Origin: Geosiphon pyriformis uo1
Lineage: Eukaryota > Fungi > Glomeromycota
Direction: 5' to 3'
DNA: 64,000 bases
NCBI GenBank assembly: GCA_016748015.1
Contig: JAAOMT010000777.1
Coordinates: forward strand, 380,246 to 444,245
Part shown: positions 1-60,531 of the stretch, one piece after another
Numbering within the stretch: position 1 is the first letter of the stretch
Layout of the letters: each line of letters opens with the position of its first letter
Made by a program: the position numbers and the translations under genes
Notes under the pieces: model-generated
What the model was told of the DNA's origin: nothing
The model's database searches: none
Seen by the model: only the letters and a program-made list of their open reading frames with translations

Positions 1-691
1 TTGTTTGTGGATGGTAGGGCAAAGACAGAGGTCTTTTGACATTGAATCGTTCACAAATTTCTTGTATCAGGTTGTTCACAAAGTGTGTTCCCTGATTGGA
101 TAAAAGTTCAATTGGACATCCATGTCTACAAATGATGTCTTCGTAGATAAAATTTGCTACTGATTTTGCATCTGCTCATTGAATGGCTCTGGCTTCAGGC
201 CATTTAGTAAGATAGTCTACAGCTACTGCAATATAACGGTTTCCTTGAGTGGTGATAGATAATGGTCTGACTAAATCGATACCAACTCTGTCAAAAGGCT
301 GTCCAACTTTGATTGGATTTAAAGATTTTGTAGGGTGAGTTCCTCCTCTTTTTTGACAACTATCACAAGATTTGACATATTCGTGAATGTCTTTTCTCAT
401 TCGAGGCCAAAAGTAGTATTCTAGTGTTCTTTGGGTGGTGCTATCTTTTCCAAAGTGTGCTGATGAAGAATCCGAGTGCATGTTGTATAAAATGGTCTCT
501 TTTTCCTGTTTTTGTATTAATCTGAGTGGTTTGGTTGGGTTTTTGAAATTTCGATGATAGATAATGTTGTTGTGTAGAAAATATTGTTTGGCTTGTTGTT
601 GTAACTGATGTTTTTCGTCTGGGGACCAATCTGTTGGGATTGTTAATGTTTCCAAATATTGTTTGAGATTGTTGTAGTTTTCAGGGTTCAT
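1..691 (-). pseudogene. Integrase of element A (separate ORF, truncated by window edge)
   Basis: HHCC zinc finger (MHSD..AHFG..CDSC) and core GIDLV..YIAVAVDYLTKWPEA; own ATG at 691; premature TGA at 176-178. Confidence 0.92.
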
Positions 692-739
692 TGTTTGTTG
701 TTTTGATGCTGTTAATTCAATTGGGTGTTGGTTTTGTTT

Positions 740-3700
740 CTAATCTTGCCTCATTCTTGAGAGACAATCAACGTTGGTGTGGAATTTTCCTGGTTTGTGG
801 TGTATGATGTATTGGTAATTAGCTAAAAATCCTGTCCATTGGGTTTGTTTTGCATTCAGCTGGGTGTTTTTGTTTTGAAGCCATTTAAGTCCAATATTAT
901 CAGTAATAATATCAAATTCTTTGGGTCTGAGGTAAAGGTTGAAGTGATGTAGGGCCCAGATTACTGCTGCGGTTTCTAATTCTGTTGCGGGGTAGTTCTT
1001 TTCGGCTGGTTTTAATGTTCTACTAGCATAAGCAATTACTCGCTCATTTCCATTGTCATCTAACTGTGATAGGATGTCACCAAAAGCAGTATAAGAAGTG
1101 TTAATTGCTAACTGGAATCGGTTGCTGAAGTCTGGATAGGCAAGAATTGGGGCTGTTATGAGTTTTTTCTTGAGTATCTCGAAGACATTTTGGTGTTCTT
1201 TTGTCCATTTGTATTCGACATTTTTCATAGTGAGCTGGTTAAGGGGTTTTGCAATTTCTGAGAATTCTTTGATGAATTTTCGGTAATAAGATGCTAATCC
1301 AATAAATCCTCTTAATTCTGTGGTATTTTGTGGAGTCTTGAAATTTTTGACAGTACTGATTTTTCCGGGGTCTGGTTTAATTCCATCTTTGCTAACAATG
1401 TGACCAAGAAAAGCTAAACTTGTTTTTCTGAAGTAGCATTTTTCAATGTTCAGTTTTAATCCTGCTTTCCGTAATCGTTGAAAAACTTCTCGTAGGTGAA
1501 TTAAATGTAGCTCAAAAGACAGTGAATAAACATCAGTGTCATCAAGATAAACTACTACTGATTTCCAAAGGAGGCCTTTGTAAACAACATCCATAAGTCT
1601 TTGGAATGTTGCTAGTGCATTGCATAATCCAAAAGGCATTACATTGAACTCGTAATTTCTTTCTTGAGTGGTGAATGCTGTTTTGGGGCAGTCTTTGGAA
1701 TCCATAGCAACTTGCCAGTATCCATTCTCTAAATCTAGTGTTGAAAAGTATTTGGACTTTCCAAGGGCATCCAACATGTCATCAATTCGGGGAAGAGGAT
1801 AGGCATCCCCAATGGTAACACTGTTGAGTTGTCGGTAATTAACACAAAATCGTATCTTTCTATTTTTCTTTTTAACTAGAACCACAGGTGAGGTCCATGG
1901 GCTCATTGATGGTTGAATAAGCCCATTGTTAAGCATCCGTTGTACTTCTTTTCGGATAAATTGATGACTTTCTGGAACAACTCGGTAGGCTTGTTGTTGC
2001 CTGGGTTTGGCATCTCCTGTATAGATTTGGTGTTGAACCAAATCAGTTCTTCCTAAGTTATTGTTGTTTTTGGCGAAGATATCAGCAAATTCTGCAATTA
2101 GTTCTTTGAGCTGGGTTTGTTGTTGTAGTTCAAGTTGTCCCATGTTGATTCGAGATAGTTTTTCCATGACAACATGGTAGTTTTCAGAGCTAGGGTTTGG
2201 GTTGATTTTCAGTAGTGAATGTCCAATAATTTCAGGGAAATCAGGGACTGTTTGGGGTAATTCTTGTTGAAATATTTTACTGTGAATAACTCCAATTTCT
2301 AAATTATTTAATAAAATTATGGGGTAATTATTGGGGTTGTAAAAAGTAACTCGGACTTTCTTTGTTCCTTCTGAAATATAAATGTTTGGGATCAAAATAT
2401 TATGTTCCAAGCAGACTTGTTTATTGGACTCAAAAATTTGTTGTGTGGTTGTTGGCTTTGTACAAGTGTAAATTTCTGGATGTTCTCTAAAGAGTGAGAT
2501 GGTAATCAGTTGTGGAAGTCTGAGAATCTGGTGGGATTCGTTTTGTGTGTTAAGAGCTATATTAACTGGAACTGTGAATCGTCCAGTTGAACCAAAACCT
2601 TGGGTTCCTCTATCGCTTTTTCCTAATTATTCTCTTTGATTGACTAGTTGCAAACCCGAAATGTTGATTAAGGGTAGGTAAATAGCTTGGGCAATTTTTT
2701 CAGCATGTTCGATCTTGAATGGTTTGTCAGTCTCATTTTGAAGCATCACTGTTATGTCTCCAGTATATCCAGTATCGATTATTTCTCCTCTGATATTGAT
2801 TCCTTTGCTTGCCAGAGAGGACCAAGAGGCGATTTGAACCATTGCTTCTGGCGGGATTTTGAGTGCAATTTTGAGGTTGATTTTTGTGAGAGATTTGGGT
2901 TTGAGAACAAGAGTATCTTTGCCTGGATATCTTAAGTCATATCCAGCATCAATTTCGTGTGCTTTTTCAGGTTTTATTCCTTGTCCATTGTTGTTGAAGT
3001 ATTTAAGTTGTAAGGCAGACTGATTTTCGATAAGGTAGATGAGTGTTGTTTCAATTTCTTCCATTTTTTCAGGTTCTCCAAATTCAATTTCATTCTCATT
3101 ATTTTCGCTGGGCAAGGAGATACTAAGAGCATAGCATTCGGGACACCATTGTTCATCGCAAGGCATAATGCATTCTTCACATAGCCTAATGTTCATTTGC
3201 TCTAATCATTGAATTTGAGCTTCTTGGGTTGGGTAGGTGTGATTTGCAATTTGGTGATAGACTTCTACTTCATCTTTGTAATCAAATCCAGCTAATTCCA
3301 TAGTGTATTCAATGTATTCTGCTTTCTTCATTTGACAAACATCTTCTTTGGTAGCTCCATTAATTAATGCCATTGCTAAGTCGAAAATCATCTTGGCGTC
3401 ATAAGGGTAGTGATAAAGTTTGTTGAGAGCACTGTTGTATGCTGCATTAAAGGGTGTTCCTCTTTTTACTTTTTCTGAAATTGATAAGGCATATTGGCAG
3501 GTCTGATCGCAGATGCCTCCTCTCATTGCTACATCAATCCAATTGCATTCTTCCAGTAGCATATCTCCACAAGTCAAACAAGCAGTGTTGTCCCATTTTC
3601 CACTTCTTTTTATTAGGTGGCCTCATCGCTTTCTGTGGCAGGCCTTGCAGTAATAACAAGTATGATTCTCATATTCTTCTTCAGGTGAAATGCAGGCTCC

Positions 3701-6638
3701 CATTGACGATAGTTTCTTGTGGCAGTTCTTACATTTAAGGGGAATATAGGGGCGTTGTTTTCTTGGTTCGGGTTTGGAGTAAGATATATTCCATCCAGAG
3801 GTTTCGGGTTTAGTGTGTGTGGTAAAATGTTCTTGTTCTGTTTCATCGGCCCAGTTAAACGTTGATCCAAGAGCCATGAATGTTTCGATTATTGGTTTTT
3901 CTTCTTCTGGTTCAAATTCAAAAGCTGGGGCTTTTTCAGAGCATTTGTTGAATGTACCACAAATTGCAGGTACTCGGGCATGTTGTCCTTGGTAGGAGAT
4001 TGTTAACTCTTGTGTTTCCCAATTCAGATTAGCATTGGCTTTTTGAAGCCAATCATTTCTGACAAGAGCTTGGTACTGGGGTGCGTCCATTACAAGAACT
4101 TTGACTGAAATGGTGATTCCATCAAGAGTGAACAGAAANNNNNNNNNNNNNNNNNNNNATGTTTCGATTATTGGTTTTTCTTCTTCTGGTTCAAATTCAA
4201 AAGCTGGGGCTTTTTCAGAGCATTTGTTGAATGTACCACAAATTGCAGGTACTCGGGCATGTTGTCCTTGGTAGGAGATTGTTAACTCTTGTGTTTCCCA
4301 ATTCAGATTAGCATTGGCTTTTTGAAGCCAATCATTTCTGACAAGAGCTTGGTACTGGGGTGCGTCCATTACAAGAACTTTGACTGAAATGGTGATTCCA
4401 TCAAGAGTGAATGGAAAATTGTCAATTTCTTCTACTGGTGTCTTTTTCATGCCATCGGCAGTGACGATTACTGTTTGAGCTGGTCGGTCGACATTTCTTT
4501 TCAACTGTTGCATTAACTGGTAGGTAATAATGCTTTCGGTGGATCCACTGTCTAGGATCAAGCAAATTGGCTTTCCTTCTACTTTAGCTTCTGTGTACAT
4601 TGCAGTGATGGCTTTTTGCTCATTAGCCACTGCATTGCTAAGCAAGAATGGTAATTTATTTGCTTCAAATTCAAAAGGAAAGATATCAGAGAGATTGGCG
4701 TTTTCAGCAATTTGGGCTGGTGGAATAGTGGTGTGGTTATGAGAAGGGTTTTGTTGTTGTTGTGCTGCAGCTCTACCTTCTGAGAGTACAGTATGGTGAA
4801 AATCCTGTTCTTCTGACATTGTTAAATAACTAGGTTGAGTATGGTAATGGTTGGGTCTTAATTGAGTGGTATTTTGGGAAACCAATTGGTTGTTCGAACT
4901 GATTCTATTGTTGTTTACTTGGTATTGGTTTTGTGGTGTGAATTGATTTTGTGTAATCAGTCTTCGAGCAGGTACTTGATAATGTTGTGTGGGTGGTTGT
5001 TGGTATTGCTGTTGGATTGGTTGTAGGGCGGGCTGATAATAGTTATTTTGGTACTGGGATCTTGGTAGATAGTAAGCTGGTGGTGATGGTTGATAATAAG
5101 ATTGCTGTGGTGGAGAGTAACATTAATTACCCCTGTTTTGTTAGTCTCGCTGTAGCTTTCTGTAATCTCTTTTCCAGTGGCCAGAGATTCCACAATAATG
5201 GCAATTCTGGGGCTGGTTATTTGAAAGTGGTGCAAAGTTATTTTGATTTCATCTTTGGAGTGGTTGATATCTTTGGGGTTGTTGTTGTTGTTGGTTGGTA
5301 AAATAGTTTTCGACCTTCTTTGTGAGTTGGTCAATTTTTTCCTCAGCTGCTGAGCTGGTTTCTCCAATTGCCAAATTTACAAGTTTTGTATGATTGGCCT
5401 CTTCCATGGCCATTTCGTATCTTTTTGCATGCTGGATGGCAGAGTTTAAATCTTCTGGCGCGTGTGGGCGAACCTTTTTAATTAGTTTATCTTTTAGACC
5501 AGCAATAAATTGATCCAAGATTTGAGCATCGGAATAATAATCATTTGTCTTGAATTGGCGAATCCGTCTGAGAAGTTTGTTGAATTTCTCAATATAAGTC
5601 ATAATGAATTCAGAGGGTTTTTGTTTGATATTTCGAAAACAATTGCAAAGAGTGATAGAGGTATTATTGTTGGTGAACTGTTCAAGGAAGGCTGCTTTGA
5701 AAGCATTTCAATCATTGAATGGAGCGGCAAGGTTTTCAAACCATTCTTCTGCTGTGTCTTTGAGAAAGTAGGGAATTGTTCTTAACATTCTGGCAGCATT
5801 CCATCCATTTGCATCTTCAGCTTTAGTAACTTGGTCGAGCCATTCTTGGGGACTGGTCTCAATATCTTTTCTATTAAATTCAGGGATTTTTGCGATGTAT
5901 GTTGTCATTTCGTTTTCTTTGTTTTTACTGTCTATTGATTCTTTTTTGGTTATTTTAGAGTTGTTTTTTTTGTTTGCTGCTGTCTCAGAGTGTTCACTTT
6001 GATTTTCAGCTAGAAAATCAAGGAGATTGGAACTAGTTTGAAGGGGTTCTTGTTGTCTGGTGGGACTTCTGAGTGATGTAAAATCTTCTGGTCTTGCAAA
6101 TCGATTCAAGGATGAATTAGGTGTGTGCTTGTACAAGTAAGGCTGGAAAAGGTGTGATAGTAAGTAGAAGTTTTGAACTGGTTCTTTGTTCAGGTGTTTG
6201 TAAATGTTTAGCAGTTGTTTTCGGTAGTGTTGGAGTATTTGGGGTGGTTTTTGAATATTGCTTTAATTTGTTTTTGCCTTTGTTGCTTGTTTCTGTTTCT
6301 GATTTAAAATCAATAGTGTATTGAGACTGCACTGGATATGTTTCTTCACAGTATTTGATAATGTTATAATTAAGTTTGTGAAAGTAAGTGGCAAGTGTTT
6401 CACTATTAAGGTCTTCAGTTCCCAACTGTAAATAGTGTGCTAAATTATTGTAAAGGTTGCTTTTAACTTCTGAGATATTGTAATTTCCAAAAAGATAATT
6501 ATTGATGCAATTTTCAATGTATTGGTATACTGATTTCTTGACAACTTCAATTCCGTCTGGAATGTTGAATCTTTGCTTGCAGTGGGTGTAAATTGATTGG
6601 TAATATTCTAGAGTAGTTGCGTCTGGTGTGGTCACCAC
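740..6638 (-). pseudogene. Gag-PR-Cys-rich-dUTPase-RT-RNaseH polyprotein of element A
   Basis: ORF-track pieces 6136, 5602, 4885, 3577, 3196 and 2410 share one frame (one 2-bp deletion near 6125 and an N-gap). Motifs: Gag zinc knuckle CHYCGISGHWKRD(Y), protease LILDSGS, RT VVYLDD, RNase H ERVIAYASRTL..ELE..ITD; ends CLSRMRQD*. Confidence 0.92.
2582..3012 (-). other. dUTPase domain inside element A polyprotein
   Basis: All five trimeric dUTPase motifs: AGYDL, ASWSSLA (mutated RSS), IIDTGYTG, KIAQ, RGTQGFGSTG. Confidence 0.93.
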
Positions 6639-6668
6639 TTTGAATTTGTTTTTGCTGTGTTATTTTTA

Positions 6669-6683
6669 TGGGAGAGCACCAAA
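6669..6683 (-). promoter_or_regulatory. Primer binding site of element A
   Basis: Minus strand reads LTR-CA then TT-TGGTGCTCTCCCA, complementary to a tRNA 3' end ...GGGAGAGCACCA; same motif in B. Specific tRNA not identified. Confidence 0.75.
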
Positions 6684-7675
6684 TGTTACTGGAGGTTTTT
6701 GGTCTCTTTTCTGTAATGTTGTTGATACTTATTTGCTGCGAATTCACGTTTTCTGAATGTGGTTGAACCTCCAGTAACTGAATTTATTTTCAAATTATCT
6801 CCTATAATTTGAACTTGCTGGGCTTATGAATGGAATGGCCAATTCCGTGCCAGTTGCTTTATGTAGTTACGTTGTAGTAAACGTCAATTCTTTCCCAGGA
6901 ATTGCTTGTCTGAAAGCTCACTAAAAATGTGTAGTTACTTTGCTGTGAAAGTCAACTCTTCTACAGGAATCTTGTCTGTAGGCTACTCTAATGATTATAA
7001 TAAGAAAATAAAGAAAAATAAAAGAAGTGTAACAGAAATAGGATCTTATCAAGGGAAATGTTTTCTATCCAGGCCTGGAGTCACTAACAGTTTACTGAAA
7101 TTGGTAGCTAATCAATTTCGAAATGTTAGTTGGGTTTTGGGGATTTTCCAAGTACAATAATTAAAGAATTTGGTTTTTCAAATTATTTGATATTTATTTC
7201 TTTTTGTGTGTATAAGAACAATTTTTAAGAGATAAATCTAAGGTAAGATACATTTTCTCGAAAAGAGAAGCTCTTTTTTTATACAACTTGTTGTAACACT
7301 ATTCTATGAACTTGAACTTTGCTATTTTCTACAATTTTGCTGAACTAAAGATACATTTTGGCGAACTACAAGTTATTTTGGCGAACTATTAGATATTTTG
7401 GTGAACTATCAATTATTTCTACAAATTTCTACAAATTTCGGCGAACTTCTGAATGTTACATAGTTTGGGGTATTGCATGATTGATCATCACAATTAGGTT
7501 ACATTTGTGTTGTGTACAATTTGAGTTATTAATTAAATGATAATTTTGGACATTTTTTTTTTTTTTTTTTCTAATGTAATAAGTGATCATTTGGAACGAT
7601 AATATATGCTAATTAATGATAGGAATTATAAGATAATTTCATGCTAAATAATATCTCTAATTTTGTCTGGTAACA
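6684..7675 (-). repeat. LTR shared by A (5' LTR) and B (3' LTR)
   Basis: Ends TGTTACTGGA...TCTGGTAACA; aligns to 15547-16515; PBS on one side, PPT on the other; about 21-bp TTTTGGCGAACTA repeats at ~7335-7450 and a TATA-like motif near 7280. Confidence 0.92.
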
Positions 7676-8363
7676 TAATCTTCTCCTCAAAACTGAGCTC
7701 CATTGAAGTCCAAGTACTGTTTGTCATTTCCAGATAATAATCCAAAATTATTGAAGAAATTTGGTCTGAAAATTGTTGAAATTTCAGTTCTGTGAGCTTT
7801 CCAATGTATTGAATCTTCAAAGGTTGAAAAATCGGGTTTTGTAGTATGTTTTTACAGGTGTGAAATAGGTCATAAAGTCTAAGAGCAGCTCTGAGCTTGT
7901 AGTGACTGTTTGTTGGTCCAGCTGTTGTCTTGAATTCGTTGTGGAGTTGTTTCTAAATAGCTTCTTTTGTGAGGTTTGCTGTTGTAAGTTCCAGTTTCCA
8001 TTTGTAGAGTGTTTTTTCAATGTGAAAATATCTATAGATTGGAAGATATTTAGTGTTTTCCTTATTGAGACACAGTTGAAGTCTTTGTTAAATTGTAGCA
8101 TTTGGTGGAATACTAATCAGAGTGAGTATTAGGTTTTCTCTTAAAGCAAGCTTTAAAAGTTCTGGCAGGTGAATTTCAGAATAACTTCTTGTGTTCTTTT
8201 TATATGGGTGATATTTTCATGAATTTGGGGTTAATTTTGGAACTATTTCTGTTTGGATATAATTAATGTGGTTTTCAGTAACAGTAATGAATAATTCGGG
8301 TATTGTTTTTAAAGTTAACATTAGTTTTTGGAATAATTGTTGAATGTTTTGAGGAATAGTCAT
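7644..8363 (-). pseudogene. ORF3 of element B (env-position accessory ORF, unknown function, ~239 aa)
   Basis: Manual translation from ATG 8363: MTIPQNIQQLFQKL...GPTNSHYKLRAALRLYDLFHTCKNILQNP...IGKLTELKFQQFSDQI...; one frame with three stops explicable by C-to-T; homologous to the ORF at 51871-52499. Confidence 0.8.
7676..7692 (-). promoter_or_regulatory. Polypurine tract of element B
   Basis: Minus strand TTTTGAGGAGAAGATTA immediately before the LTR start TGTTACCAG. Confidence 0.7.
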
Positions 8364-8463
8364 TATAAGAGAATAAAAGAAAATTATTTTTGGTGTATGG
8401 GTTTTTATATTATTTTTGTTTTGATTATTTCTAAATTATAAGAGAATAACTAATAAAATTAAA

Positions 8464-9849
8464 TTAAGTGTTCAGGTTGGAAAGTTGTTTAATGACAACT
8501 ATTGGTTCTAAGTTTTGGGGAATATCTTTGGGATTGACTAAAGGGGAATGTATATCAATTTGTGGAATTAATGGTTCAGGATTGTTTCTGAAATGATAGT
8601 GTTTCAAATGATCTCCATGTGCAACTTTTGCTAGAATTTTGTCATCAAGTCTTAGCTTGTATGATCCATTGCCTAAAACTTCATGAATAAAGAATGGTCC
8701 ATCCCATTTATTTTCAAATTTTCTACTCTATTGTTTTTCAGCTTTAGTTCTGTGTAAGAAAACTTTGTGTCCAATTTTAAATTCATTGGTGACTGAAGGC
8801 AATTTGTCATCATGCCGTTCTTTTTGTTGAGCTTGAGAGTGTTCAATATGGGTAACTGCTATTCATTGTTTTCCTTCCAATGTGCTAAGCAGAGTGTAGA
8901 CTCTTCATTGAAGTGTTTCTTGAAAATTGTTTTCATCAATTGGTTGTGCTGGGTATGTTTCTACTGTGAAACTAATTGGTAACATTGCTGTCCTTCTGTA
9001 AGTTAAATTAAATGGTGTGTGTTTTGTGGTATTTTGTTTTAGTGTCCTATATGCTAATAACACTGATAAAATAAAGAGATCCCATTTTTGCTCAAAATCG
9101 GTTGAAACTTTGGCTAATGATTTACACAATGTTCTGTTGAACCATTCTACCAGTCCATTTGTTTGTGGATGGTAGGGTGAAGATAATGGTCTCTTGATAT
9201 TAAATTGTTCACAAATTTCCTGGATTAAATTGTTCACAAAATGTGTTCCTTGATCAGATAAAAGTTCTATTGGACATCTATGTCTACAAATAATGTCTTC
9301 ATAGATGAAGTTTGCTACTGATTTTGCATCTGCCTGTTGAATGGCTCTGGCTTCAGGCCATTTGGTGAGATAGTCTACGGCTACTGCAATGTAGTGGTTT
9401 CCTTGGTTTGTGATAGATAGTGGTCCGACTAAATCAATACCAACTCTGTCAAAAGGCTGTCCAACTTTGATTGGGTTTAAAAGTTCTGTAAGGTGAATTC
9501 CTCCTCTTCTTTGACAACTATCACAAGATTCAACATATTCGTGAATGTTTTTTCTCATTTGAGGCCAAAAATAGTATTCTAGTGTTCTTTGGGTGGTGCT
9601 GTCTTTTTCAAAGTGGGCTGATGAAGGATCTGAGTGCATGTTGTATAATATAGTCTTTTTTTTTTGTTCTTGTATTAATTTGAGTGGTTTGTTTGGGTTT
9701 TTGAAATTTCGGTAATAAATAATGTTGTTGTGTAAAAAATATTGTTTGGCTTGTTGTTGTAGTTGATGTTTTTCATCTGGAGACCAATCTGTTGGGATTG
9801 TTAATGTTTCCAAATATTGTTTGAGTTTGTTGTAGTTTTCTGAATTCAT
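8464..9849 (-). pseudogene. Integrase of element B (separate ORF)
   Basis: HHCC, DDE core (GIDLVGP, SDQGTHF, PQTNGLVE) and GPY/F-type tail KWDGPFFIHEVLGNGSYKL; no chromodomain seen. Confidence 0.93.
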
Positions 9850-9900
9850 TGTTTGTTGGCTCTTTTGGTTGGTTAAGTTAAATGTTGGTTTTTGTGTTTT

Positions 9901-12900
9901 CTAATCTTGTTTTATTCTGGAGAGACAGTCAACATTGGTATGGAGTTTTCCTGGTTTGTGATGTATTATGTATCGATAGTTTGCTAGAAATCCTGTCCAT
10001 CAGGTTTGTTTTGCATTCAACTGAGTATTTTTGTTTTGAAGCCATTTGAGTCCAATATTATCAGTAATAATATCGAATTCTTTAGGCCTGAAATAAAGAT
10101 TGAAGTAGTATAGGGCCCAAATTATGGCTGCTGTTTCTAGTTCTGTGACAGGGTAATTTTTCTCAGCTGGTTTTAATGTTCTGCTAGCATAAGCAATTAC
10201 TTGCTCATTTCCGTTGTCATCTAGTTGTAATAAAATAGCACCAAAGGCAGTATATGAAGCATCTGTAGCTAGTCGAAATTAGTTACTGAAATCCAGGTAG
10301 GCAAGAATTGGAGCTGTTGTCAGTTTTTTCTTGAGAATTTCAAAAGCTTTTTGGTGTTCAGTAGTCCATTTGTATTCCACATTTTTGGTGGTAAGCTGGT
10401 TGAAGGGTTTTGCAATTTCCGAAAATCCTTTGATAAATTTCCGATAGTAGGATGCTAATCTTATGAATCCTCTTAGTTTTGTAGTGTTTCGAGGAGTTTT
10501 GAAGTTTTTGACAATGCTGATTTTTCCAGAATCTGGTTTAATTCTATCTTTACTAATAATATGACTAAGGAAGACCAGGCTTGTTTTTCCAAAGTAGTAT
10601 TTTTCGATATTGAGTTTTAGTCCTGCTTTTTGTAATCATTGAAAAACTTCTCGCAGGTGTTTTAAGTGTAATTCAAATGATGGAGAATAAACATCAGTAT
10701 TGTCAAAATAAATGACTACTAATTTCCAAAGGAGGCCTTTGTAAACAACATCCATGAGTCTTTGGAATGTTGCTAGTGCATTGCATAATCTGAAAGGCAT
10801 TATATTGAACTCGTAATTTCTTCCTTGAGTGGTGAATGCTGTTTTGGGGCAGTCTTTGGGATCCATAGCAATTTGCCAGTATCCATTCTCTAAATCTAGT
10901 ATTGAAAAGTATTTGGATTTTCCAAGGGCATCTAACATGTCATCAATCCGGAGAAGGGGGTAGGTGTCTCCAATTGTAACACTATTGAGTTGTCAATAGT
11001 CAACACAAAATTGGATCTTTCCATTTTTCTTTTTAACTAACACTACAGGTGAAGCCCAAGGACTCATAAAGGGTTGGATAAGTCCATTGTTAAGCATTTA
11101 TTGTACTTCTTCTCAGATGAATTGGTGGCTTTCTGAAGCAACTCGATATGTTTGTTGTCTTCTTGGTTTGGCATCTCCTGTATAAATTTGGTGTTGGACC
11201 AAATTGGTTCTTCCTAAGTCATTGTTGTTTTCAGTAAAGATATTGGCAAATTCTGCAATTAGCTCTTTGAGCTGGGTTTGTTGTTGTGGTTCAAGTTGTC
11301 CCATGTTAATTCGAGATAGTTTTTTCATGACAACATGGTAGTTTTTGGAGCTGGGGTTTGGGTTGATTTTTGGTATTGAATGTCCAATAATTTTAGAGAA
11401 ATCGGGGACTGTTTGGGATAATTCTTGTTAAAATATTTTACTGTGAATAACTCCAATTTCTAAATTATTTAATAAAATTATGAGGTAATTATTGGGGTTG
11501 TAAAAAGTAACTCGGACTTTCTTTGTTCTTTCTGGAATATAAATGTTTGGAATCGAAATATTATGTTCCAAGCAGACTTGTTCATTGGACTCAAAAATTT
11601 GTTGTGTGGTTGTTGGCTTTGGGCAGGTGTAGATTTTTGGATGTTCTCCAAAGGGTGAAATAGTAATTGGTTGTGGAAGTCTAAGAATCTGGTGGGATTT
11701 GTTCCGTGTGTTAAGAGCTATGATAACTGGAACTGTGAATCGTCCAGTTGAACCAAAACCTTGGGTTCTTCTATCGCTTTTTCCTAATTGTTCTCTTTGA
11801 TTGACTAGTTGCAAACCTGAAATGTTGATTAAGGGTAGGTAAATAGCTTGGGCAATTTTTTCAGCATGTTCGATCTTGAATGGTTTGTCAGTTTTATTTT
11901 GAAACATCACTGTAATGTTTCCAGTATATCCAGCATCAATTATTTCTCCTCTGACATTGATTTTTTTGCTTGCCAGAGAGGACTAAGAGGTAATTTGAAT
12001 CATTGCTCCTGGCAGGATTTCGAGTGCAATTTTGAAGTTGATTTTTGTGAGAGATTTGGGTTTGAGAACAAGAGTATCTTTGCCTGGATATTTTAGGTCA
12101 TATCCAGCATCAATTTTGTGTGCTTTTTTGGGTTTTATTCCTTGTCCGTTGTTGTTGAAGTATTTAAGTTGTAAGACAGGCTGATTTTCGATAAGATAGA
12201 TAAGTGTTGTTTTAATTTCTTCCGTTGCTTCAGGTTCTCTAAATTCAATTTCATTCTCATTATTTTCACTGGGCAAGGGGATACTAAGAGTGTAGCATTC
12301 AGGACACCACTGTTCATCGCAAAGCATAATGCATTCTTCACATAGCCTAATGTTCATTTGCTCTAATTATTGAATTTAAGCTTTTTGAGTTGGGTAGGTG
12401 TAACTTGCAATTTGGTGGTAGACTTCTATTTTGTCTTCGTAATCAAATCCAGCTAATTCCATGGTGTATTTAATGTATTCTGCTTCCTTTATTTGGCAAA
12501 CATCTTCTTTGGTAGCTCTATTAATTAATGCCATTGCTAGGTCGAAAATCATCTCAATATTATAGGAGTAGTGATAAAGTTTGTTGAGAACACTGTTGTA
12601 TGCCGCATTAAAGAGTGTTCCTCTTTTTATTTTTTCTGAAATTGATAAAGCATATTGGCAGGTTTGATTGCAGACTCTTCCTTTCATGGCTACATCAATC
12701 TAATTGCATTCTTCTGGTAGCATATCTTCACAAGTTAAACAAGGGGTGTTGTCCTATTTTCTGCTTCTTTTTATTAGATGGCCCCATCATTCTTTGTGGC
12801 AAGCCTTGCAATAATAACAAGTATGATTTTCATATTCTTCTTCAGGTGAAATGCAGGCTCCCATTGACGATAGTTTTTTGTGGCAGTCCTTACATTTAAG

Positions 12901-15501
12901 GGGAATATAAGGGCGTTGTTTTCTTGGTTCAGGTTTTGAGTAAGGGATATTCCATCCAGAGGTTTCGGGTGAGATAAAATGTTCTTGTTCTGTTTCATTG
13001 GCCCAGTTGGACGTTGATCCAAGAGCCATGAATGTTTCAATGAGGGGTTTTTTCTCTTCCAGTTCGAATTCAAAAGCTGGGGCTTTTTCAGAGCATTTGT
13101 TGAATGTACCACAAGTGGCAGGTACTCAGGCATGTTGTCCTTGGTAGGAGATTGTTAACTCTTGTGTTTCTCAATTCAGATTAGCATTGGCTTTTTGAAG
13201 CCAATCATTTCCGACAAGAGCTTGGTACTGAGGTGCATCCATTATAAGAACTTTGACTGAAATGGTGATTCCATCAAGAGTAAATGGAAAATTGTTAATT
13301 TCTTCTACTGGGGTCTTTTTCATGCCATCAGCAGTGACAATTACTGTTTGAGCTGGTCGGTCAACATTTCTCTTCAACTGTTGCATTAACTGGTAGGTGA
13401 TAATGCTTCCAGTGGATCCACTGTTTAGGATCAAGCGAATTGTTTTTTCTTCAACTTCTGTTTTAGTGTACATAGCTGTGATTGCTTTTTGTTCATTGGC
13501 GGCTGCATTGCTAAGTAGAAATGGTAATTCATTGGCTTCGAACTCGAAAAGAAAAATATTAGTGAGATTGGCGTTTTTAGCAATTCAGACTGGTGGAATA
13601 GTGGTGTAATTATGAAAAGGGTTTTGTTGTTGTGCTGCAGCTCTACTTTCCGAGGGTGCAGTATGGTAAAACTCCTGTTCTTCTGGTATTGTTAAATAAC
13701 TGGGTTGAGTGTAGTAGTGGTTGAGTCTTGGTTGAGTGGAATTTCAGGGAACCAATTGGTTGTTCAAACCAATTCTATTGTTGTTTACTTGGTATCAGTT
13801 TTGTGGTATAAGTTGATTTTGTGTAATCAGTTTTCGAGTGGGTACTTGATAATGTTGTGTAGATGGTTGCTGGTATTGCTGTTGGATTGGCTGTGGAGCA
13901 GGCTAATAATAGTTATTTTGGTACTGAGGTCTTGGTGAATAGTAAGCTGGTGGTGATGGTTGATAATAAGATTGCTGTGGTGGAGGGTAACATTAATTAC
14001 TCCTATTTTGTTGGTCTCATTGCAGCTTTCTGCAATCTCTTTTCCAATGGCCAGAGATTCCACAGTAATGGCAATTCTGAGGTTAGTTATTGGAAAGTGG
14101 TGCAAAGTTATTTTAATGTCGTCTTTGGGGTGGTTGATATCTTTGGAGTTGCTGTTGTTGTTGATTGGTGAAATAGTTTTTAATCTTCTTTGTGAGTTGG
14201 TCAATTTTTTTCTCAGCTGCTAAGCTGGTTTCTCCAATTGCCAAATTTACAAGTTTGGTACGATTGGCCTCTTTTATGGCCATTTTGTATCTTTTCGCAT
14301 ACTGGATGGCAGAGTTTAAATCTTCTGGTGCGTGTGGGTAAACCTTTTAAATTAGTTTATCTTTTAGACCAGCAATAAATTGATCCAAGATTTGAGCATC
14401 AGAATAATAATTGTTTGTTTTGAGTTGGCAAATTTGTCTGAAAAGTTTGTTGAATTTCCCAATATAAGTCATAACAGATTCAGAGAGTTCTTGTTTGATA
14501 TTTCAAAAATGATTGTGAAGGGTGATAGAGGTATTATTGTCAGTGAACTGTTCAAGGAAGGCTGCTTTAAAGGCATTCCAATTATTGAATAGGGTGGCCA
14601 GATTTTCAAACCATTCTCCTGCCATTCCTTTGAGAAAGTATGAAATTGTTCTTAACATTCTGGCAGCATTCCATCCATTTGTATCTTCAGCTTTAATAAC
14701 TTGGTTGAGCCATTCTTGGGGACTGGTCTCAATGTCTTCTCCATTAAATTCAGGGATTTTTGCAATGTATGTTGTCATTTTGTCTTCTTCGTTTTTACTG
14801 TCTATTGATTCTTCTTCAGATATTTCAAGTTCGTTTTCTTCGTTCGCTGCTGTCTCAGAATGTTCACTTTGATTTTCAGCTAGAAAGTCAAGGAGATTGG
14901 AACTAGTTTGAAGGGGTTTTTGTTGTCTGGTGAGACTTCTGAGTGATGTAAAATTTTCTGGTCTTGCAAATCAATTCAAGGGTGAATTAGATGTTTGTGC
15001 TTGTGCAAGTGAAGCTGGAAAAGGTGTGATAGTAAGTGAAAGTTTTAAACTGGTTCCTTGTTCAGGTGTTTGTAAATGTTTGAATAATATTTTAGGAGTA
15101 TTGGGTGTTGTATGAACAGATTGGTTATCTCTTTGTCTTTTGTTGCTACTGGTTTCAGGTTCAGATTCGAGTTCAAAGACAAATTGTGCATTTGCAGGAT
15201 ATTTTTCTTCACAGAATCAAATGATATTATAATCGAGTTCCTCAAAATAAGTAGCACAAGCTTCAGCACTAATGTTTTCTGCTTTAGTGTTGGAATAGTG
15301 TAATATGTTCTCAAGAAGATTTCTTTTAACTGTTGTAATGTTATAGTTTCCAAAGAGGTAGTTGTTAATTCGATTTTTGATGTATTGAAAAAGTGTTTTC
15401 TTGAAAGCTATGATTCCATCGCGTATTTCAAATCGTTGTTTACAGTGTGTGTAAATCAATTGATAGTACTCTAGGGTTATGATGTCCGAGGTGGTTGCCA
15501 C
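9901..15501 (-). pseudogene. Gag-PR-Cys-rich-dUTPase-RT-RNaseH polyprotein of element B
   Basis: ORF-track fragments starting 15501, 14778, 13473, 13029, 12687, 12357, 11910, 11328 and 10938 are all in one frame, broken by point-mutation stops; ends CLSRIKQD* at 9901. Confidence 0.92.
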
Positions 15502-15546
15502 TTTGAATTTGTTGTTGCTGTGTTGTTTCCGTGGGAGAGCACCAAA

Positions 15547-16515
15547 TGTTACCAGAAGTTTTTGGTCTCTTCTTAGTTCTTGTATGTTTGTTGTAATGCT
15601 GTTAATTTACAATTTATGGGAAGTGTTTAAACCTCCGATAACTGAATTTATCTTCAAATTATCTTCTATACTTTGAACTGCAGGACTTATAAGTGGAATG
15701 GCCAATTCCTCACCAGTTACTTTATGTAGTTACATTGTAGTAAATGTCAACTCTTTCTCAGGAATTGCTCATCTGAAAGCTCACTAAAATGTGTAGTTAT
15801 TTTGCTGTGAAAGTCAACTCTTCTACAGGAATCTTGTTTGTAGGCTACCCTAATAATTATGATAATAAAAGAAAATAAAATAAAAGAAAAGGAAAGAAAA
15901 AAAAGAAATGAGGAATTGATTTGTTAAAGTCGTTTTGGATCCAGGCCTGGAAGTGCTTTAACAGTCTACTGAAATTGGTAGCTAATCAATTTCAAACTGT
16001 TAGTTGGGTTTTGGGGATTTTTCAAGTGTAATAATTAAAGAATTTGGTTTTTCAAATTATTTGATATTTATTTCTTTTGTGTGTGTAAAAATGGTTTTAA
16101 GTGATAAATCTAGAGTAAGATACATTTTCTCAAAAAAAAAAGCTCTTCTTTTATACAACTTGTCGTAACACTATTCTATGAACTTGAACTTTGCTATTTT
16201 CTACAATTTCACTGAACTAAAGATACATTTCGGTGAACTATTAGATTTTTCGGTGAACTATCAATTATTTCGGCAAATTTTTACAAATTTTGGTGAACTT
16301 TTTGAATGTTACATAGTTCAGGGTATTGCATGATTGATCATCACAATTAGGTTACATTTGTGTTGTATACAAATTGGGTTATTAATTAAATGATAATTTC
16401 AGATATTTTGCTAATGTAATAAGTGATAATTTGAAATGATAATATATGCTAATTAATGATAGGAATTATAAGATAATTTCATGCTAAATAATATCTCTAA
16501 TTTCATCTGGTAACA
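15547..16515 (-). repeat. 5' LTR of element B
   Basis: Perfect 10-bp terminal inverted repeat TGTTACCAGA...TCTGGTAACA; PBS TTTGGTGCTCTCCCAC at 15531-15546. Confidence 0.93.
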
Positions 16516-19500
16516 GCAGATTTGACCTTACCAGGTTCGAGAATCAAATCATTCTCAATTATTAGGTGGTCGAGCACCACCTTCTGAAACGAACACTCCA
16601 AGACATTCTTGATCATGCAACCCTTATCAGAACAAAAATTCTCCATGTGCTTGTCAATAGCCTTCCTAATAAGAGCAACCCTAGCAACCCTAGATTCAAA
16701 GTACTTAGACTTGTAATATTTTTTCCTGACCCCTAATAGGTGGTGCAGAATCACCTCAATATTGACACTATTGTCGACCATAACACAAACCTCAGCAGCA
16801 TCACTAACATTGATTTTGGACCAAGCATCAATAAGTTTGACTACACTAGAAACTTAATAAGAACCCAAGCTCCACATCAATTTAGCCACCAAAAGCTCCA
16901 GCTTGAAGAATTTTAAAGATTGCTTATTTCTCAAACACTTGAATTCACTGAACCAGAATCTCGAAAACACCTTATCAGCAGAGCTAATTACCACTTCCCT
17001 AATGATTTCCCACATAGCATCCAGATTACCACTAGTCTTAGCCTTATAGAATTCACCCAATCACTCCAGAAATCTAATTAAAAAGCAGTCTCAAAAACCC
17101 AACCACTTGTCAGCACCTACATCTTTGATTCTGAATTTCCACCTATTTTTATTAGCTTGCTTATGAATACTATTGAGATGAGCATTGAGAAGACCACCCA
17201 AACCAATTGAAACTGATACAGCTTTGTGGTCCATATCAAAAAAATCTTGAACAGAAGCAACTCCATGACCAGCAATCACAGCTGACAGACCTTCACTCAC
17301 AAAAATAAAATCAATAACCTTCTCAACACCCCTCGAGTTGTCTCAAGTAGGAGCCCCAACCAAAGAGTATCTCTCAAATGAATTAACCAAATCCAGATCA
17401 GAACAAAATTTAAAATTCGCACTCTTCCTAGAGCTGTCTTTATTAAAGTCACTACCAAGAACCACAAAAGTGCTGGAGTTTACAGCCTTAGCAATAAACA
17501 AATTGATTTCTGAAGCCTGACCAAACCTAGTACCAGCAAAAGCACTGGCATAAAGACCCAAAACTGAAACTGAAAGCTTGCCCTTGAAAAAAAGCTGTAC
17601 TGAAATAAAACAACCAGGAACTTCTTTGACTTTAGAAACATGATGAGCCAAAGAATTGTCCATAATAATAGCCACATCAGCACTAAGGAAACCCACATCC
17701 AACCCTGAAGAAAAAATTCTCACCCCATCAAACTTATCCGCAATCCATGGCCTAGTAGAAGACCTAAGCTTAGTTTCTGTAACTACTGAGATCAAATTAC
17801 CAGAATCAAAATGCCAACGTACAATATCCTCTTGCTTAGCAGAAATGTTGATACACGAACATTACATGTAGCCACCCTCCAAATTAGGTCACTCATTAGG
17901 GTGAAAAAAGTGTCTGTGAATCCAAGCTAATGCACAACTGATCTAACTTCTCCAAAATTGCACCAACAGAGGCATTAAGAGCCAACAACTTGGATTCCAA
18001 GGAACCCACCTTAGAGGTCAAAACCTTCGAACTACTTGAACCCAAATCCGAACCACTGAAAGGAAGTGGAGATGTCTCTACAAGAATATTCGAGATGTCA
18101 TTCAAAGCCATATCAAAACTGGCAGCTGCTGGTACAGCCAAAACAGAAGTAGAGAGAAAAAAAACTGACAGCACTAGATTCATGTCGTTGAGTTTGTGCA
18201 TAATACCAGAAACCTGGTCATTTAAGAGCTCCAATGAATGTTCCAAAGATGCCAAACAAACACTCAAAGACGAATTAACATTCGAAAGCAAAGGAGCACT
18301 ATCACTTAAACTAAAGATGCCATAAGAGAAGGCACCAGAACCAAAACCAGAGCTGGAAGAGGAGCCAACAGAAAAGGACGCAAGAGACACCACTTGGGTC
18401 CATAACTTGCTCCCAAAAGCAGCAGGATGAGAGATAGGAACATTTTTTTTTGCATAAAGCCTGGCCAGCTGAAAGTGGTTGGCAAAGAAAGCAGGCCTTT
18501 TAAACAAAGATGAGAGCTCAGGAGATGACATAATTGAAGCATCACATTCAAGAGCCGAGTAACCAAAATGCCCACATTTCCCATATTGAACCAAATCAAA
18601 TCTAGCCCACGAGAGTTGAACACCATCAAGGATAGACTCAGTAAGAAAAGCTAAATTCAAATCATTAACAGATTCAAAGCACACTACTGCACAACAAAAT
18701 CTATTGCCAGTTTCCAATGAGCAATTAATAACACAAGTCTTCTCACCAACTTTATCCAAAAGAGTACCAATATCATGTACAGTAGTTCCCACCGGCAAAG
18801 TAAACAAAAGCACCCTGAAGCAATTCCTTGACACCCAGATATTACAATCACCCACAGCTTTGGCTACACGCACTGAGTCTTTTCCAATTAGGAATGACCA
18901 CTTTGAGACCAACTGATCGGCTTGACCAGACTCGGCGAATTCCACTACAGCCTTTTGCCACATTCCAATTAACTGAATTTTAATTGATTTAATATTTTCA
19001 AACTCGGCTACTGTGGTAATGATCATTTTTTTAGATGTATTCATGGGAATTTCTTTGATCACCACAGCCCGATCTGAACACATTCCTTGTCTTTTGAAAT
19101 CAGTGTTTACAATGATGTTGTTATCTTTGGCCAATGAGATGGCCTTTTCCATGCTTGCTTCAGAAGTAAAAGTAGATATAATGATTCCTTTAAATTTTGA
19201 GGGAATAATGGCCCCCCCAAAATTACTGATTCCTGCAAATAATTTTCTTATGACCTGAGTTTTGGCTGTTGCTAATTTCCCTTCCACAGCTGAAAGATTG
19301 ATGTCCAAAGCAAAAAATTTTCTCACAGACACCTCAATCTGAGTTTTAACAATTTTAGAATCAATCCACTTTTTATCCAGAGGGATAGACACACGAGGAG
19401 GAAGCACAATTTTATCATCATCCATAGTAAAATCAGGAGAGCCAAGTGGAGAACCAAACATTATGCCAGTATCAACATGTTTTGCCTTGGGAGTGGTTGC

Positions 19501-19875: not shown

Positions 19876-20418
19876 TTTTTTTTAAATATTAAAACTATTA
19901 TAATAATATTATTATTATAATTTTTAAAACCAATTTTAATAAAAATAATTTTTACAAATTTTTAAGTTAAAATTATAAAAATTTATTTAATAAATAATAT
20001 AATAATTTTTAATTTTTAATTTATATTTTTAAATTGTTGTAATTTTGTTATAATTTAAATTAATTTAATAAATATTTGTTTAAAAAAATTAAGATATTTG
20101 TTAATAATTTTATTAAAAATTTAAATTTATTTATAATTATTATAAATATATTATATTATTTTTATATTTAAAAATGTAATATAAATATTAAAATTTATAA
20201 TATTATGTTATTTATTTTAGTATATTTTGATAATAAGTAATAATATTATTTATATAAATAATCAAATATTATTAAATATTTAAAAAATAAAATTTGACTT
20301 GTTTAAACCTAATTTTTTAAAATAAATATCAAATTAAAAAATAGTATATTTAAAATTTAATTAGTAAAAAAAAAATTAATGTTAAATAAGTTTTTTATTT
20401 ATTGTTATTATTAATACA

Positions 20419-45000: not shown

Positions 45001-45085
45001 TTTAGCAGAGGGTTTACTGGTGGGTGGTGTGCCCGCAAGTGTTCTCATCATACAAAGCTCAGGTTTTGACTTTGTAAAAAAATAA
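42025..45085 (+). CDS. KHA1: K+/H+ antiporter (CPA2 family), multi-exon
   Basis: RQPRVISEVLGGIILGPS, ITAFPVLARI, AAVGDDVAAW, MSCKGLVELIVLNIG and C-terminal PFFGGADDREAL; GT-AG introns. Confidence 0.93.
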
Positions 45086-51595: not shown

Positions 51596-51870
51596 TGTTA
51601 CGGGATGGTTTTCTTGTTATATTTAATTGCTGATATCCCGCTTTAATTGCAATCAGTCTTTCGTGAGTTCCTCAATTCTATTTGTGTGATAATGTCACTG
51701 TTATACTGAAGGCTTTCTTTTTACTGTTGTGATGNNNNNNNNNNNNNNNNNNNNNNNNNNNNNNNNNNNNNNNNNNNNNNNNNNNNNNNNNNNNNNNNNN
51801 NNNNNNNNNNNNNNNNNNNNNNNNNNNNNNNNNNNNNNNNNNNNNNNNNNNNNNNNNNNNNNNNNNNNNN

Positions 51871-52499
51871 TCATTAAATTCTAAGTTACTATAGTGGTTC
51901 AATACTGTGTTATTAATTTGTTGTTGTAATTCTTGAAATTGCGAGTTGGTAAGTCGTCCAATACTGTTGGTTGTTATTATGTTCATGGTTGGATCCAACA
52001 ATAATTTGTGACAGTTTTCAAATGCTTTGAAAATTCTGTAAACTGTTTTTGAATGGAATGTAGTGTTGGTTTTTCCAATGAAAGGTTTTAATAGTTGGAT
52101 AGTTGTTTTGTCAAACACTCTAGTTGAGTTTTTTGAGTATAATGTTTGTATGTTCAAGTGCTTTCCTAGTTGATAATAACAGTAATTAATTGGAAATTTC
52201 GTTTTCAAGTTGCTAAATGTGTCTGGTGTTAATTCACTTATTTCTATTTCTTCCATTATTAATGTATTGCCCAATGCTATTTCTAATTTTTCAATAACTT
52301 TGCTAATAAATTTGTTGTTATATTTGGCAATATTATATGGTTCGAAATTATGTTCTTTTCTTGTTTTTGGATTTTCTATTGTTCTTTTTATGTATGTTAT
52401 TTTGGAGCTATTAACTGTGATTTCTAGATCGGATTTTAATTGTTGTAAGCTTTCAACTAATTGTTGAGTTATATTGTTGATGTTTTCTGAAATAAGTAT
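51871..52499 (-). pseudogene. ORF3 of element C (env position)
   Basis: Open frame ILISENINNITQQL...IGRLTNSQFQELQQQINNTVLNHY up to the N-gap; start ATA probably a G-to-A mutated ATG; aligns with ORF3 of B. Confidence 0.78.
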
Positions 52500-52586
52500 T
52501 ATTGTTTTAATTTTGACTGTTATTTTGGAATCTTTTGCATGCGTTTTTATGGTTGTTAAATCATTTTTGCTGTGATCTAAGATTAA

Positions 52587-53715
52587 TTATCTTTTCGAAT
52601 AATGTTCAATTAAAACTATTGGTTCTAAATCTCGTGGAATTTGTTCTGGTAGAATTAAAGGTAATTGTGTTCCAATTCTGGGTGTTTTTGTTGTTATTAC
52701 TGGTTTACTGTAATAGAATTTCAGCCGGTTACCATGTGCTGCTTTTCTTAATATTTTATCATCTAGTCTTAGCTTGTATGCTCCATTTCCAAGTATTTCG
52801 TGAATATAAAATGGTCCATCCCACTTGTGATCAAATTTTCCACTCCACTGTTTTTCCATTTTNNNNNNNNNNNNNNNNNNNNGTGAATTGTGTAGTATCT
52901 TGTTTTACTGTTCTATATGCTAGTAGTACTGCTGGTATGAACAAATCTTATTCTTTTTCATGTTCGTTACTAATTTTCACCAGTGATTCACATAATGTGT
53001 GATTAAATCTTTCAACTAATCTATTTGTTTGAGGGTGGTATGGTGATGACAGTGGTCACTTGATTCCAAATTTTTGGCTAAGTTCTTTTAAGGTGCTGTT
53101 TACGAAGTGTGTGCCTTGATCTGATAGCAATTCTTGTGGACATCTATGTCAGCAAATTAAGTCTTCATGTATGAATTGAGCTACAGAAATAATATCAGCT
53201 GTTTTAATAGCTCTAGCTTTTGGCCATTTGGTGAGATAGTCTATGGCTACTGCAATATAATAGTTGTTTCTTGTTGTTATTGGTAAGGGTCCAACTAAAT
53301 CAATTCCGATTCTGTTAAATAACTGTCCAACTTTTATTGGTCTTAATAATTCCGTTGTTTTTGCTCCTCCTCTTCGTTGGCATGGGTCACAATTTCTTAT
53401 GTATTGGATTATGTCTGAACTCATTTTTGGCCAATAGTAACGGCTAGTTGCATGTTGGATGGTTGCTGTTTTTCCAAAGTGGCCTGAATAAATATCTGAG
53501 TGCATGTTAAATAAGATAGTTTCTTTTTCATCCGTGGTTATAACTCTTAATGGATTATCTGGATTTTGTTGATTCTGGTAATAAAGTATGTGATTTTGGA
53601 TGAAATAGTGTTTTGCTAATTTTTGGAGCTTAATTAGCTCTTTTACTGGCATTTCTTCATCTATTTGTAGTGTTTCCAAGTATTGGCTGAGGTTTTTGTA
53701 AATGTAGTTGTTCAT
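52587..53715 (-). pseudogene. Integrase of element C (separate ORF; partly duplicated at 54126-55126)
   Basis: ATG 53715 MNNYIYKNL; HHCC, GIDLVGP, KWDGPFYIHEILGNGAYKL. Confidence 0.88.
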
Positions 53716-53744
53716 TGTTGTTGTGGTGGGTGGATTGGTGATTT

Positions 53745-56700
53745 TTATGTGTGTCTCATTCTTGACAAACAGTTGGCATTAGCATTTTTGGTACCTTCTT
53801 TGTATTTGATAATATAATCATATGGTACTAACATTTGTGACCATCTGGCGTATTTTCTTTTTAGCGCTTTCTTGTTATTTAACCAGACCAGACCTCTATG
53901 ATCTGTCATAATCTCAAAGGGTTGGTACCGTAAATATGTGTCAAAGTGAACACAACTCCAGACTACTGCTAAGCATTCAAGTTCATGTGCTGCGTAGTTT
54001 TGTTCTGCCGTACTGAGACTTCTGCTGGCATAAGCGATTACACGTTCTCTTCCATTATCATTTTTTTGTGACAGAATGGCTCCAAGTCCAGTTCCAGAGG
54101 CATCTNNNNNNNNNNNNNNNNNNNNATACTTTATCTCCAATTTTGTAGCTAATTATATTATCTGGTAACTGGTTATCATGTCTCACTTTTTGTTGTTCTT
54201 GTGATTGTTCAATATTTTGTGCTGCTTTTCTTCTTTTGTTTTCTAAAGTTCCCATTAATTCGTATGTTCTTCTAAGTAGTGTTTCCTGGAATGTTGCTTC
54301 CATGATAGTGTCACTTGGATAAGTTGGGATAGTAAGTTCAACGGGTAATGTGGCTTTTCTTCCATAAACTAGTTCAAACGATGTGAATTGTGTAGTATCT
54401 TGTTTTACTGTTCTATATGCTAGTAGTACTGCTGGTATGAACAAATCTTATTCTTTTTCATGTTCGTTACTAATTTTCACCAGTGATTCACATAATGTGT
54501 GATTAAATCTTTCAACTAATCTATTTGTTTGAGGGTGGTATGGTGATGACAGTGGTCACTTGATTCCAAATTTTTGGCTAAGTTCTTTTAAGGTGCTGTT
54601 TACGAAGTGTGTGCCTTGATCTGATAGCAATTCTTGTGGACATCTATGTCAGCAAATTAAGTCTTCATGTACGAATTGAGCTACAGAAATAGCATCAGCT
54701 GTTTTAATAGCTCTAGCTTCTGGCCATTTGGTGAGATAGTCCATGGCTACTGCAATATAATGGTTGTTTCTTGTTGTTATTGGTAAGGGTCCAACTAAAT
54801 CAATTCCGATTCTGTCAAATGACTGTCCAACTTTTATTGGTCTTAATAATTCCGTTGTTTTTGCTCCTCCTTTTCGTTGGCATGGGTCACAATTTCTTAT
54901 GTATTGGATTATGTCTGAGCTCATTTTTGGCCAATAGTAACGGCTAGTTGCATGTTGGATGGTTGCTGTTTTTCCAAAGTGGCCTGAATGAATATCTGAG
55001 TGCATGTTAAATAAGATAGTTTCTTTTTCATCCGTGGTTATAACTCTTAATGGATTATCTGGATTTTGTTGATTCTGGTAATAAAGTATGTGATTTTGGA
55101 TGAAGTAGTGTTTTGCTAATTTTTGGNNNNNNNNNNNNNNNNNNNNAGTGAACACAACTCCAGACTACTGCTAAGCATTCAAGTTCATGTGCTGCGTAGT
55201 TTTGTTCTGCCGTACTGAGACTTCTGCTGGCATAAGCGATTACACGTTCTCTTCCATTATCATTTTTTTGTGACAGAATGGCTCCAAGTCCAGTTCCAGA
55301 GGCATCTGTGGCCAAAATGAATTTCTTGTTGAAATTCAGATAGATCATTATTGGTGATTCAATGAGCTTTTGTCTAAGGTACTCAAAAGCTTTTTGTTGT
55401 GCTTCAGTCCATTCAAACTTCACATTTTTAGATAGTAGGTAATTAAGGAGTTTGGCGANNNNNNNNNNNNNNNNNNNNAAAAACTTGTTGTAAATGTTGG
55501 AGATGATCTGTGAATTTTGACGAGAAAACATTTGTATCATCCAAGTAGACAACAACGGATTGCCACAGGATTCCAGAGTAAATTACATCTATTAGTCTTT
55601 GGAATGTCATGGGAGCATTTGTTAATCCAAATGGCATTACATTGAACTCATAATTGCTATTTTGTGTTGTGAATGCTGTTTTATGCCTGTCCTTTGGGTC
55701 CATTTCCACTTGCCAGTACCCACTGGTCAAGTCCAGTGTAGAAAACCATTTTGCTCCTCCAAAAACGTCGAAAATTTTGTCAATTAACAGTATTGGGTAT
55801 GAGTCTTTGGTTGTTTTCCTGTTTAGTTTGCGATAGTCAACGCAAAATCTAATTTTTCCGTTCTTTTTCTTTACTAAAACAACTGGTGAGGACCATGGAC
55901 TCATTGATGGTTGTATTATTCCTTTTTCCAACATGCTTTGGACTTCTTCTCTGATAAAATTATGCTCCATTGGTGGGACACAGTAAGTGCATTGTTTTTC
56001 AGGTCTGGCGTCTCCAGTAGAGATTTGGTGTTAAACCAAGTTGGTTCTTCCAAATTTGCCATTTCTTGAAAATATATCAGAGTATTTTAAAATTAATGCT
56101 TTTAATTGTTGCTGTTGGTCAGGATCCATTGTTCCAATGTTTAATTTGGCCAATTCTTCTGGCGTAAATTGATAGCATTCTACCGGTTGTTGCCAATTTA
56201 TTGAAGTGAGTTCACAGTAGAGGGTGATTTCTGGGAAATTTAGAATTTCTTGTGGTGTTAACGCGTTTTCTAGCTCCGTTCCGAGGTATCCAATGATGGT
56301 ATCTTCCGGAATGTAGACAGGTTCTTCTGTGGTGTTTGCAATAGGAATTTTTATCTATTGAGCTTTATCAGCTGGAATAAAAAGATTAGTAAGTCTTATG
56401 AGAAACTGTTGGCAAGTTTCTGGGTAGGACTCAAATATTAGGTCTTTTTCTTTAATTGTCCTTTTTATTCTTATTTCTGATTTTCCATATGGTAGGAGCA
56501 TAATGGACTACTCATTTTTAATTACTTCACCTTTTTCCTCTATTATTTCAGCGAAATTCACTTCAATTCCTTTTCCTGTTGATCTGAAACCAAAAGTTCC
56601 TCTCATTGTTTGTAACAATTCCTCACGATTTTCCACTGGCACAAATTTCCCAATTTTTACCAATGGTAGGAAAATTGTTTGTGCAATCTTTTCCTTAGAT

Positions 56701-60449: not shown

Positions 60450-60531
60450 TTTTGTCTTTTCCTTTTTAGCAATGAATTATTGCTAATTATTATTTCCTTT
60501 TTGATTTTCTTTCCTCGTAAGATTCACCAAA

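Follow-up and report, generated by a model that had tools for sequence, protein, structure and literature searches.

A conserved, soluble third open reading frame between pol and the 3' long terminal repeat of Ty3/Gypsy retrotransposons in Geosiphon pyriformis

Introduction

Fungal Ty3/Gypsy retrotransposons are usually depicted with no genes besides gag and pol. Extra open reading frames (ORFs) are already known in long terminal repeat (LTR) elements of animals and plants, and here we describe one in the fungus Geosiphon pyriformis: a third frame, ORF3, that follows pol in elements carried by a 64,000-nucleotide stretch of contig JAAOMT010000777.1 (the window). Foamy viruses encode a soluble DNA-binding transactivator, Tas/Bel1, whose gene follows the structural genes and overlaps the 3' LTR; the protein acts on the LTR and on an internal promoter. 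The likeness to ORF3 is one of analogy only. A viral fold library gave no ORF3 match at E ≤ 0.001, and the Geosiphon element lacks env.

The bdelloid Ty3/Gypsy families Vesta, Juno and TelKA carry non-env ORF3s and a dUTPase between protease and reverse transcriptase (RT), as described in the available part of PMC5408684. The Geosiphon elements resemble them in having a sense third ORF after pol, a dUTPase in the same place and an integrase with a C-terminal module. However, that paper describes bdelloid ORF3s of env-like, transmembrane, GDSL esterase and DEDDy exonuclease types, whereas Geosiphon ORF3 matched none of the corresponding Pfam entries and lacks a membrane segment. In plants, Retand elements carry an antisense gene, TRP28, proposed to bind DNA (PMC11963269, in part). 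Like ORF3, TRP28 is a conserved extra gene between pol and the 3' LTR with no similarity outside transposable elements (TEs), a proposed DNA-binding regulator with family-specific tandem repeats nearby. TRP28, however, is antisense within a 3-6.5 kb spacer, while ORF3 is sense, fills a gap of 0.8-1 kb and, in two of the elements described below, overlaps the polypurine tract (PPT) and LTR; their sequences were compared through Pfam scans. A functional analogy may also be drawn with the VANC proteins of VANDAL elements, family-specific anti-silencers dependent on short repeated motifs (PMC6719617, in part): both settings have an element-encoded accessory protein, and in Geosiphon family-specific short repeated motifs are candidates and a methylating host is probable. 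VANDALs are plant DNA transposons, though, with no VANC-ORF3 sequence match, and an anti-silencing role for ORF3 is putative.

For the terms queried, the accessible text of a survey of fungal LTR elements (PMC3248453) and of a family survey of early-diverging fungi (PMC8778642) does not mention such an ORF, and our literature search, incomplete in coverage and excluding supplements, found no description of it. ORF3 is a real, uncatalogued protein family, carried by elements of a known kind.

Results

ORF3 is a conserved third gene in several diverged Geosiphon Ty3/Gypsy families and in an environmental relative. The window holds three Ty3/Gypsy elements, all on the minus strand: A (from about 7675 to beyond base 1, its 3' end outside the window), B (16515 to about 7070) and C (about 60750-51596). 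They show gag followed by protease, RT, RNase H and integrase, between LTRs and with a PPT, and Pfam recognised Retrotrans_gag/Ty3_capsid, RVP_2, RVT_1, RT_RNaseH, Integrase_H2C2 and rve across the three. In B, in C and in a metagenomic contig, L001, ORF3 is sited between integrase and the 3' LTR (Table 1); when its profile was run against six frames of the window, only B and C matched.

The initial annotation had claimed that the B and C proteins align along their length despite low nucleotide similarity, and both parts were borne out. The alignment extends across about 210 residues, contains all the motifs then listed, and has a local BLOSUM62 score of 168, against a mean of 40.6 (sd 7.1, maximum 74) in 3,000 shuffles; tblastn gave 26% identity over 215 columns (E 6.5e-11). 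At the DNA level, the best blastn match was 18 nt (E 0.016), and none exceeded 26 nt. Searching 1,724 candidates with a joint B and C profile yielded 210 proteins at E ≤ 0.001, and the 120 of these that were listed are all G. pyriformis hypothetical proteins. The closest relatives are 85% identical to B and 96% to C, and full-length B or B2 copies make up 28 of 242 fetched proteins. A second search revealed a third ORF3 family (53 matches, all G. pyriformis). Among 1.84 billion representatives, 85 matched the profile at E ≤ 0.001; the 19 looked up comprised 13 from G. pyriformis and 6 environmental sequences, one of the latter spurious. A 23-row tree, whose branches are long and whose deep nodes are weakly supported, places Geosiphon subfamilies B, B2, C, D, E and F alongside several environmental lineages. 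In 33 of the 242 proteins, gene models from five subfamilies, the integrase tail and ORF3 are joined, the tail first in 31; in our reading these are no true fusions but errors of gene prediction, which show that the two frames are neighbours.

L001, the sole confirmed locus among 597 pattern matches, presents, in this order, RT, RNase H, an SH3-tailed integrase, 316 nt of spacer, an intact ORF3 of 230 amino acids, the same PPT junction as B and an LTR-like stretch. Identity to B and C is 45-65% for its pol blocks (long blocks about 60%) and 25-29% for its ORF3. The PPT junction provides the only significant blastn match to B (36 nt, 92%, E 1e-10), and the peptide that this PPT encodes also closes P0194, an environmental relative. 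Codon-position identities among B, C and L001 were 54-58% at second, 41-43% at first and 32-44% at third positions, for which 31-34% is expected, and the proportion of nonsynonymous differences (0.48-0.52) lay below that of synonymous differences (0.65-0.77) in all three pairs. This pattern, from a protein-guided alignment with saturated synonymous sites, fits long purifying selection. On the reading that we prefer, ORF3 is an old accessory gene that a lineage of fungal Ty3/Gypsy elements has passed on vertically.

The B copy has three in-frame stops, at codons 49 (TGA, 8219), 92 (TAA, 8090) and 137 (TAG, 7955), before its stop codon at 7646-7644. It was rightly said to be missing from the ORF track, since a stop-to-stop list contains only its last 102 amino acids (7644-7952). 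The stop density (3 in 239 codons) is similar to that of pol (11 in 1,170), the two B LTRs are 91% identical over 561 columns, and 410 of 472 differences between A and B pol are transitions. B is decayed throughout, so its stops reflect the decay of one copy and do not characterise the gene. Hence, the earlier phrase "hidden by stops" suits the window copy but not the family, of which intact copies are already in GenBank, annotated as hypothetical host genes and not recognised as retrotransposon ORF3. The B frame does read through the PPT into the LTR, as first noted: the 3' LTR begins with TG at 7675, and the final 10 codons and the stop lie inside it. This can be checked in B only, the corresponding C junction being covered by an N gap (51735-51870). 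C has an open frame at 52586-51678, in which the ORF3 portion (52502/52499-51873) begins 84 nt downstream of the pol stop; the codon at the position of the sister copies' Met is not ATG. In the B spacer, a pyrimidine run followed by AG at 8432-8431 may be a splice acceptor.

ORF3 is a soluble, non-env, conserved accessory ORF in the env position, after pol on the sense strand. The maximum 19-residue Kyte-Doolittle mean is 1.15 in B and 1.05 in C, in keeping with the initial observation that no membrane segment is visible (a signal peptide was judged by hydropathy only). None of 37 long members reaches the value of 1.6 taken for a transmembrane anchor or fusion peptide, the maximum being 1.5. 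Nine printed members have no furin site (R-X-K/R-R) and contain 0-5 Cys; 6 of 11 groups share a conserved Cys. An identity as Env was rejected on hydropathy, the lack of a furin site and the lack of a conserved Cys set. Profile, Pfam, PDB and fold searches matched no known env or host protein family: Pfam scans gave nothing at Pfam cut-offs, and the PDB sequence search had no match.

The predicted structure, an N-terminal helix and beta-hairpin, a disordered linker and a core of seven to eight helices, is confident and has no significant solved relative. Where a fold match covers the core from end to end, it is to a DNA-binding domain of ParB type, below significance. With ParB/Spo0J/KorB, DUF1016_N (PF17761), DUF3102 (PF11300) and Raf1_HTH (PF18579), the predicted ORF3 fold shares an aromatic-x-IG-x-x-L helix, then a helix-turn-helix with R-L-Y-x-x-F, and a weak whole-core structural overlap; all its scores against this group are below significance, however, and it differs in lacking a CTPase or nuclease domain, in its additional N-terminal helix-hairpin module and in its eukaryotic retrotransposon context. 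Profile comparison (hhalign) of ORF3 with ParB/KorB-type families gave 10.4-19.4, but bacterial families score 10.8-20.1 with one another, so this has little power. Conserved, exposed basic residues lie on one helix. The weak structural and profile leads, none significant, favour a DNA-binding, helix-turn-helix-like core. Membership of DUF1016_N itself was rejected, with P0007 at 12.9 bits (E 0.12) against a gathering cut-off of 32.8 bits and 2 of 45 ORF3 members scoring at E ≤ 1.

Table 1. Positions of ORF3 and associated features in the window
Feature	Position	Strand	Remarks
ORF3 of element B	7644..8363	-	ATG at 8363, 239 codons; full-length relatives 74-85% identical
PPT of B	7679..7688	-	within ORF3 coding frame; junction sequence shared with L001
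Spacer, AT-rich, 100 nt	8364..8463	-	separates pol stop from B ORF3 ATG
Integrase of B	8464..9900	-	H2C2, rve, C-terminal SH3_Tf2-1-like (Pfam); stops interrupt
B 3' LTR = 5' LTR of tandem element A	7068..7675	-	3' end approximate
13-nt motif array, 5 copies in B 3' LTR	7334..7447	-	spacing 21, 20, 20, 40 nt
B 5' LTR	15900..16515	-	3' end approximate
ORF3 of element C	51873..52502	-	open frame, start codon altered, 3' end lost in N gap
C integrase region	52587..55126	-	partly duplicated across assembly gaps
C 3' LTR, visible part	51596..51734	-	97% to 60532-60670

Discussion

Our results suggest, tentatively, that the ORF3 product may bind phased motifs in the LTR of its own family and so keep that promoter active or unmethylated. 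The RNA for ORF3 would arise by splicing or by internal initiation, and the protein would enter the nucleus, bind the motifs through its predicted ParB/KorB-like helix-turn-helix core, and activate the cognate LTR or protect it from methylation, in the manner of Tas or VANC. The 13-nt array of the B 3' LTR, four copies of which also lie in the 5' LTR at 16206-16299, is a candidate protein-binding array. The motif of L001 is a different one: the spacer preceding ORF3 has three copies phased by 21 nt (2236-2286), and the LTR has at least four, including a pair at the same 21-nt interval; all these patterns were derived post hoc from the same sequences, and shuffle counts for them are not tests. 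The phased spacer copies of L001 are as expected of an internal promoter that shares sites with the LTR. No such array was seen in the visible part of the C LTR. CpG depletion (observed/expected 0.19-0.53) suggests a methylating host, and for Rhizophagus irregularis PMC8647823 reports TEs with CG methylation and small RNAs. A fuller account, and an unlikely one, is that of a lineage-old, element-borne, sequence-specific factor for transcription or against silencing, with a prokaryote-type ParB/DUF1016_N helix-turn-helix as its basis, reading the phased LTR motif of its own subfamily and arising before the subfamilies and host species split.

The initial annotation had proposed an accessory protein such as a silencing suppressor, targeting factor or transactivator; the real, conserved, soluble, non-env accessory ORF stands, and among the roles the weak helix-turn-helix-like leads, none significant, favour a transactivator, anti-silencing or targeting factor over a generic RNA-silencing suppressor. 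It seems somewhat improbable that ORF3 binds RNA, either for Rev-like export or protection of genomic RNA or to blunt small-RNA silencing, as no RNA-binding family matched it and the fold matches spanning the whole core are of DNA-binding type. Tethering of the integration complex to chromatin or to a DNA motif, as by the chromodomain of other fungal Ty3 elements, would suit such a core too, and is consistent with an integrase tail in which Pfam scored an SH3-like model only and no chromodomain, and with the tandem placement of B beside a sister element. However, ORF3 is a separate frame 84-316 nt past the pol stop and not part of the integrase, and we consider tethering quite unlikely.

ORF3 may instead be a particle-associated or self-limiting factor, for assembly or copy-number control, with no nucleic-acid specificity. 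Its divergence (25-29%) is closer to that of a gag N-terminal block (24%) than to that of pol, and no fold match is significant, but the window gag regions show no profile similarity to it and its conserved basic helix argues against this role, which we also regard as quite unlikely. A last reading, of ORF3 as a degenerate remnant of env or of a membrane-fusion protein, or as captured sequence with no function, is largely refuted and highly improbable: it does occupy the env position and both window copies are broken, yet hydropathy, furin-site and Cys evidence oppose it, the stop density of B indicates that the whole copy is decaying, and 28 full-length relatives and the L001 frame persist.

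More than 200 public G. pyriformis "hypothetical proteins" match ORF3, so that part of the orphan gene set of this fungus is retrotransposon ORF3. If the fuller account given above holds, ORF3 would be a Tas- or VANC-like switch in a fungal retrotransposon and could help to explain the LTR expansion in Geosiphon, whose genome is 41.2% LTR sequence (PMC11952901, in part). Should it be a cognate LTR regulator, this soluble protein of small size, together with a short candidate DNA motif, would offer a means of probing how LTR elements escape methylation in Glomeromycota.

Other features of the window

A and B stand in tandem (window 1-16515) with one LTR common to both and internal regions 85-88% identical. 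A pol (743-5122, minus strand) encodes an RVP_2 protease (E 1e-9), a long Cys-rich insert, a dUTPase (E 4e-17) and, after the dUTPase and right before RT, a second protease-like stretch (Spuma_A9PTase, E 6e-6); regions matching this unusual layout also occur in B and C. The available part of PMC5408684 lists retrotransposon dUTPase for basidiomycetes and bdelloids only. In gag of A (about 5700-6660) and of C (59475-60476), the capsid is preceded by a long N-terminal extension that Pfam does not credibly match; one block is 24% identical between B and C.

The resemblance of the LTR copies ends at a perfect 12-bp palindrome at 7068-7079 and at the equivalent place in the B 5' LTR. Past the B LTR end there is no obvious tRNA-type primer site; in C, a stretch starting with TGG directly follows the LTR end at 60532. 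Near-identical duplications flank 20-N gaps at 3880-4417 and 52883-55307 and are probably assembly artefacts. Elsewhere in the window are a 493-amino-acid ORF at 43604-45085 (plus strand) with a weak CHX17_2nd match only and a 357-amino-acid ORF at 46227-47300 (minus strand) with a weak zinc knuckle. A second repeated element, with long ORFs, occurs at 16906-19877 and 32980-35975 (70% identical over 3 kb), and its ORF at 17896-19803 has a weak RRM_1 match (E 2e-5).
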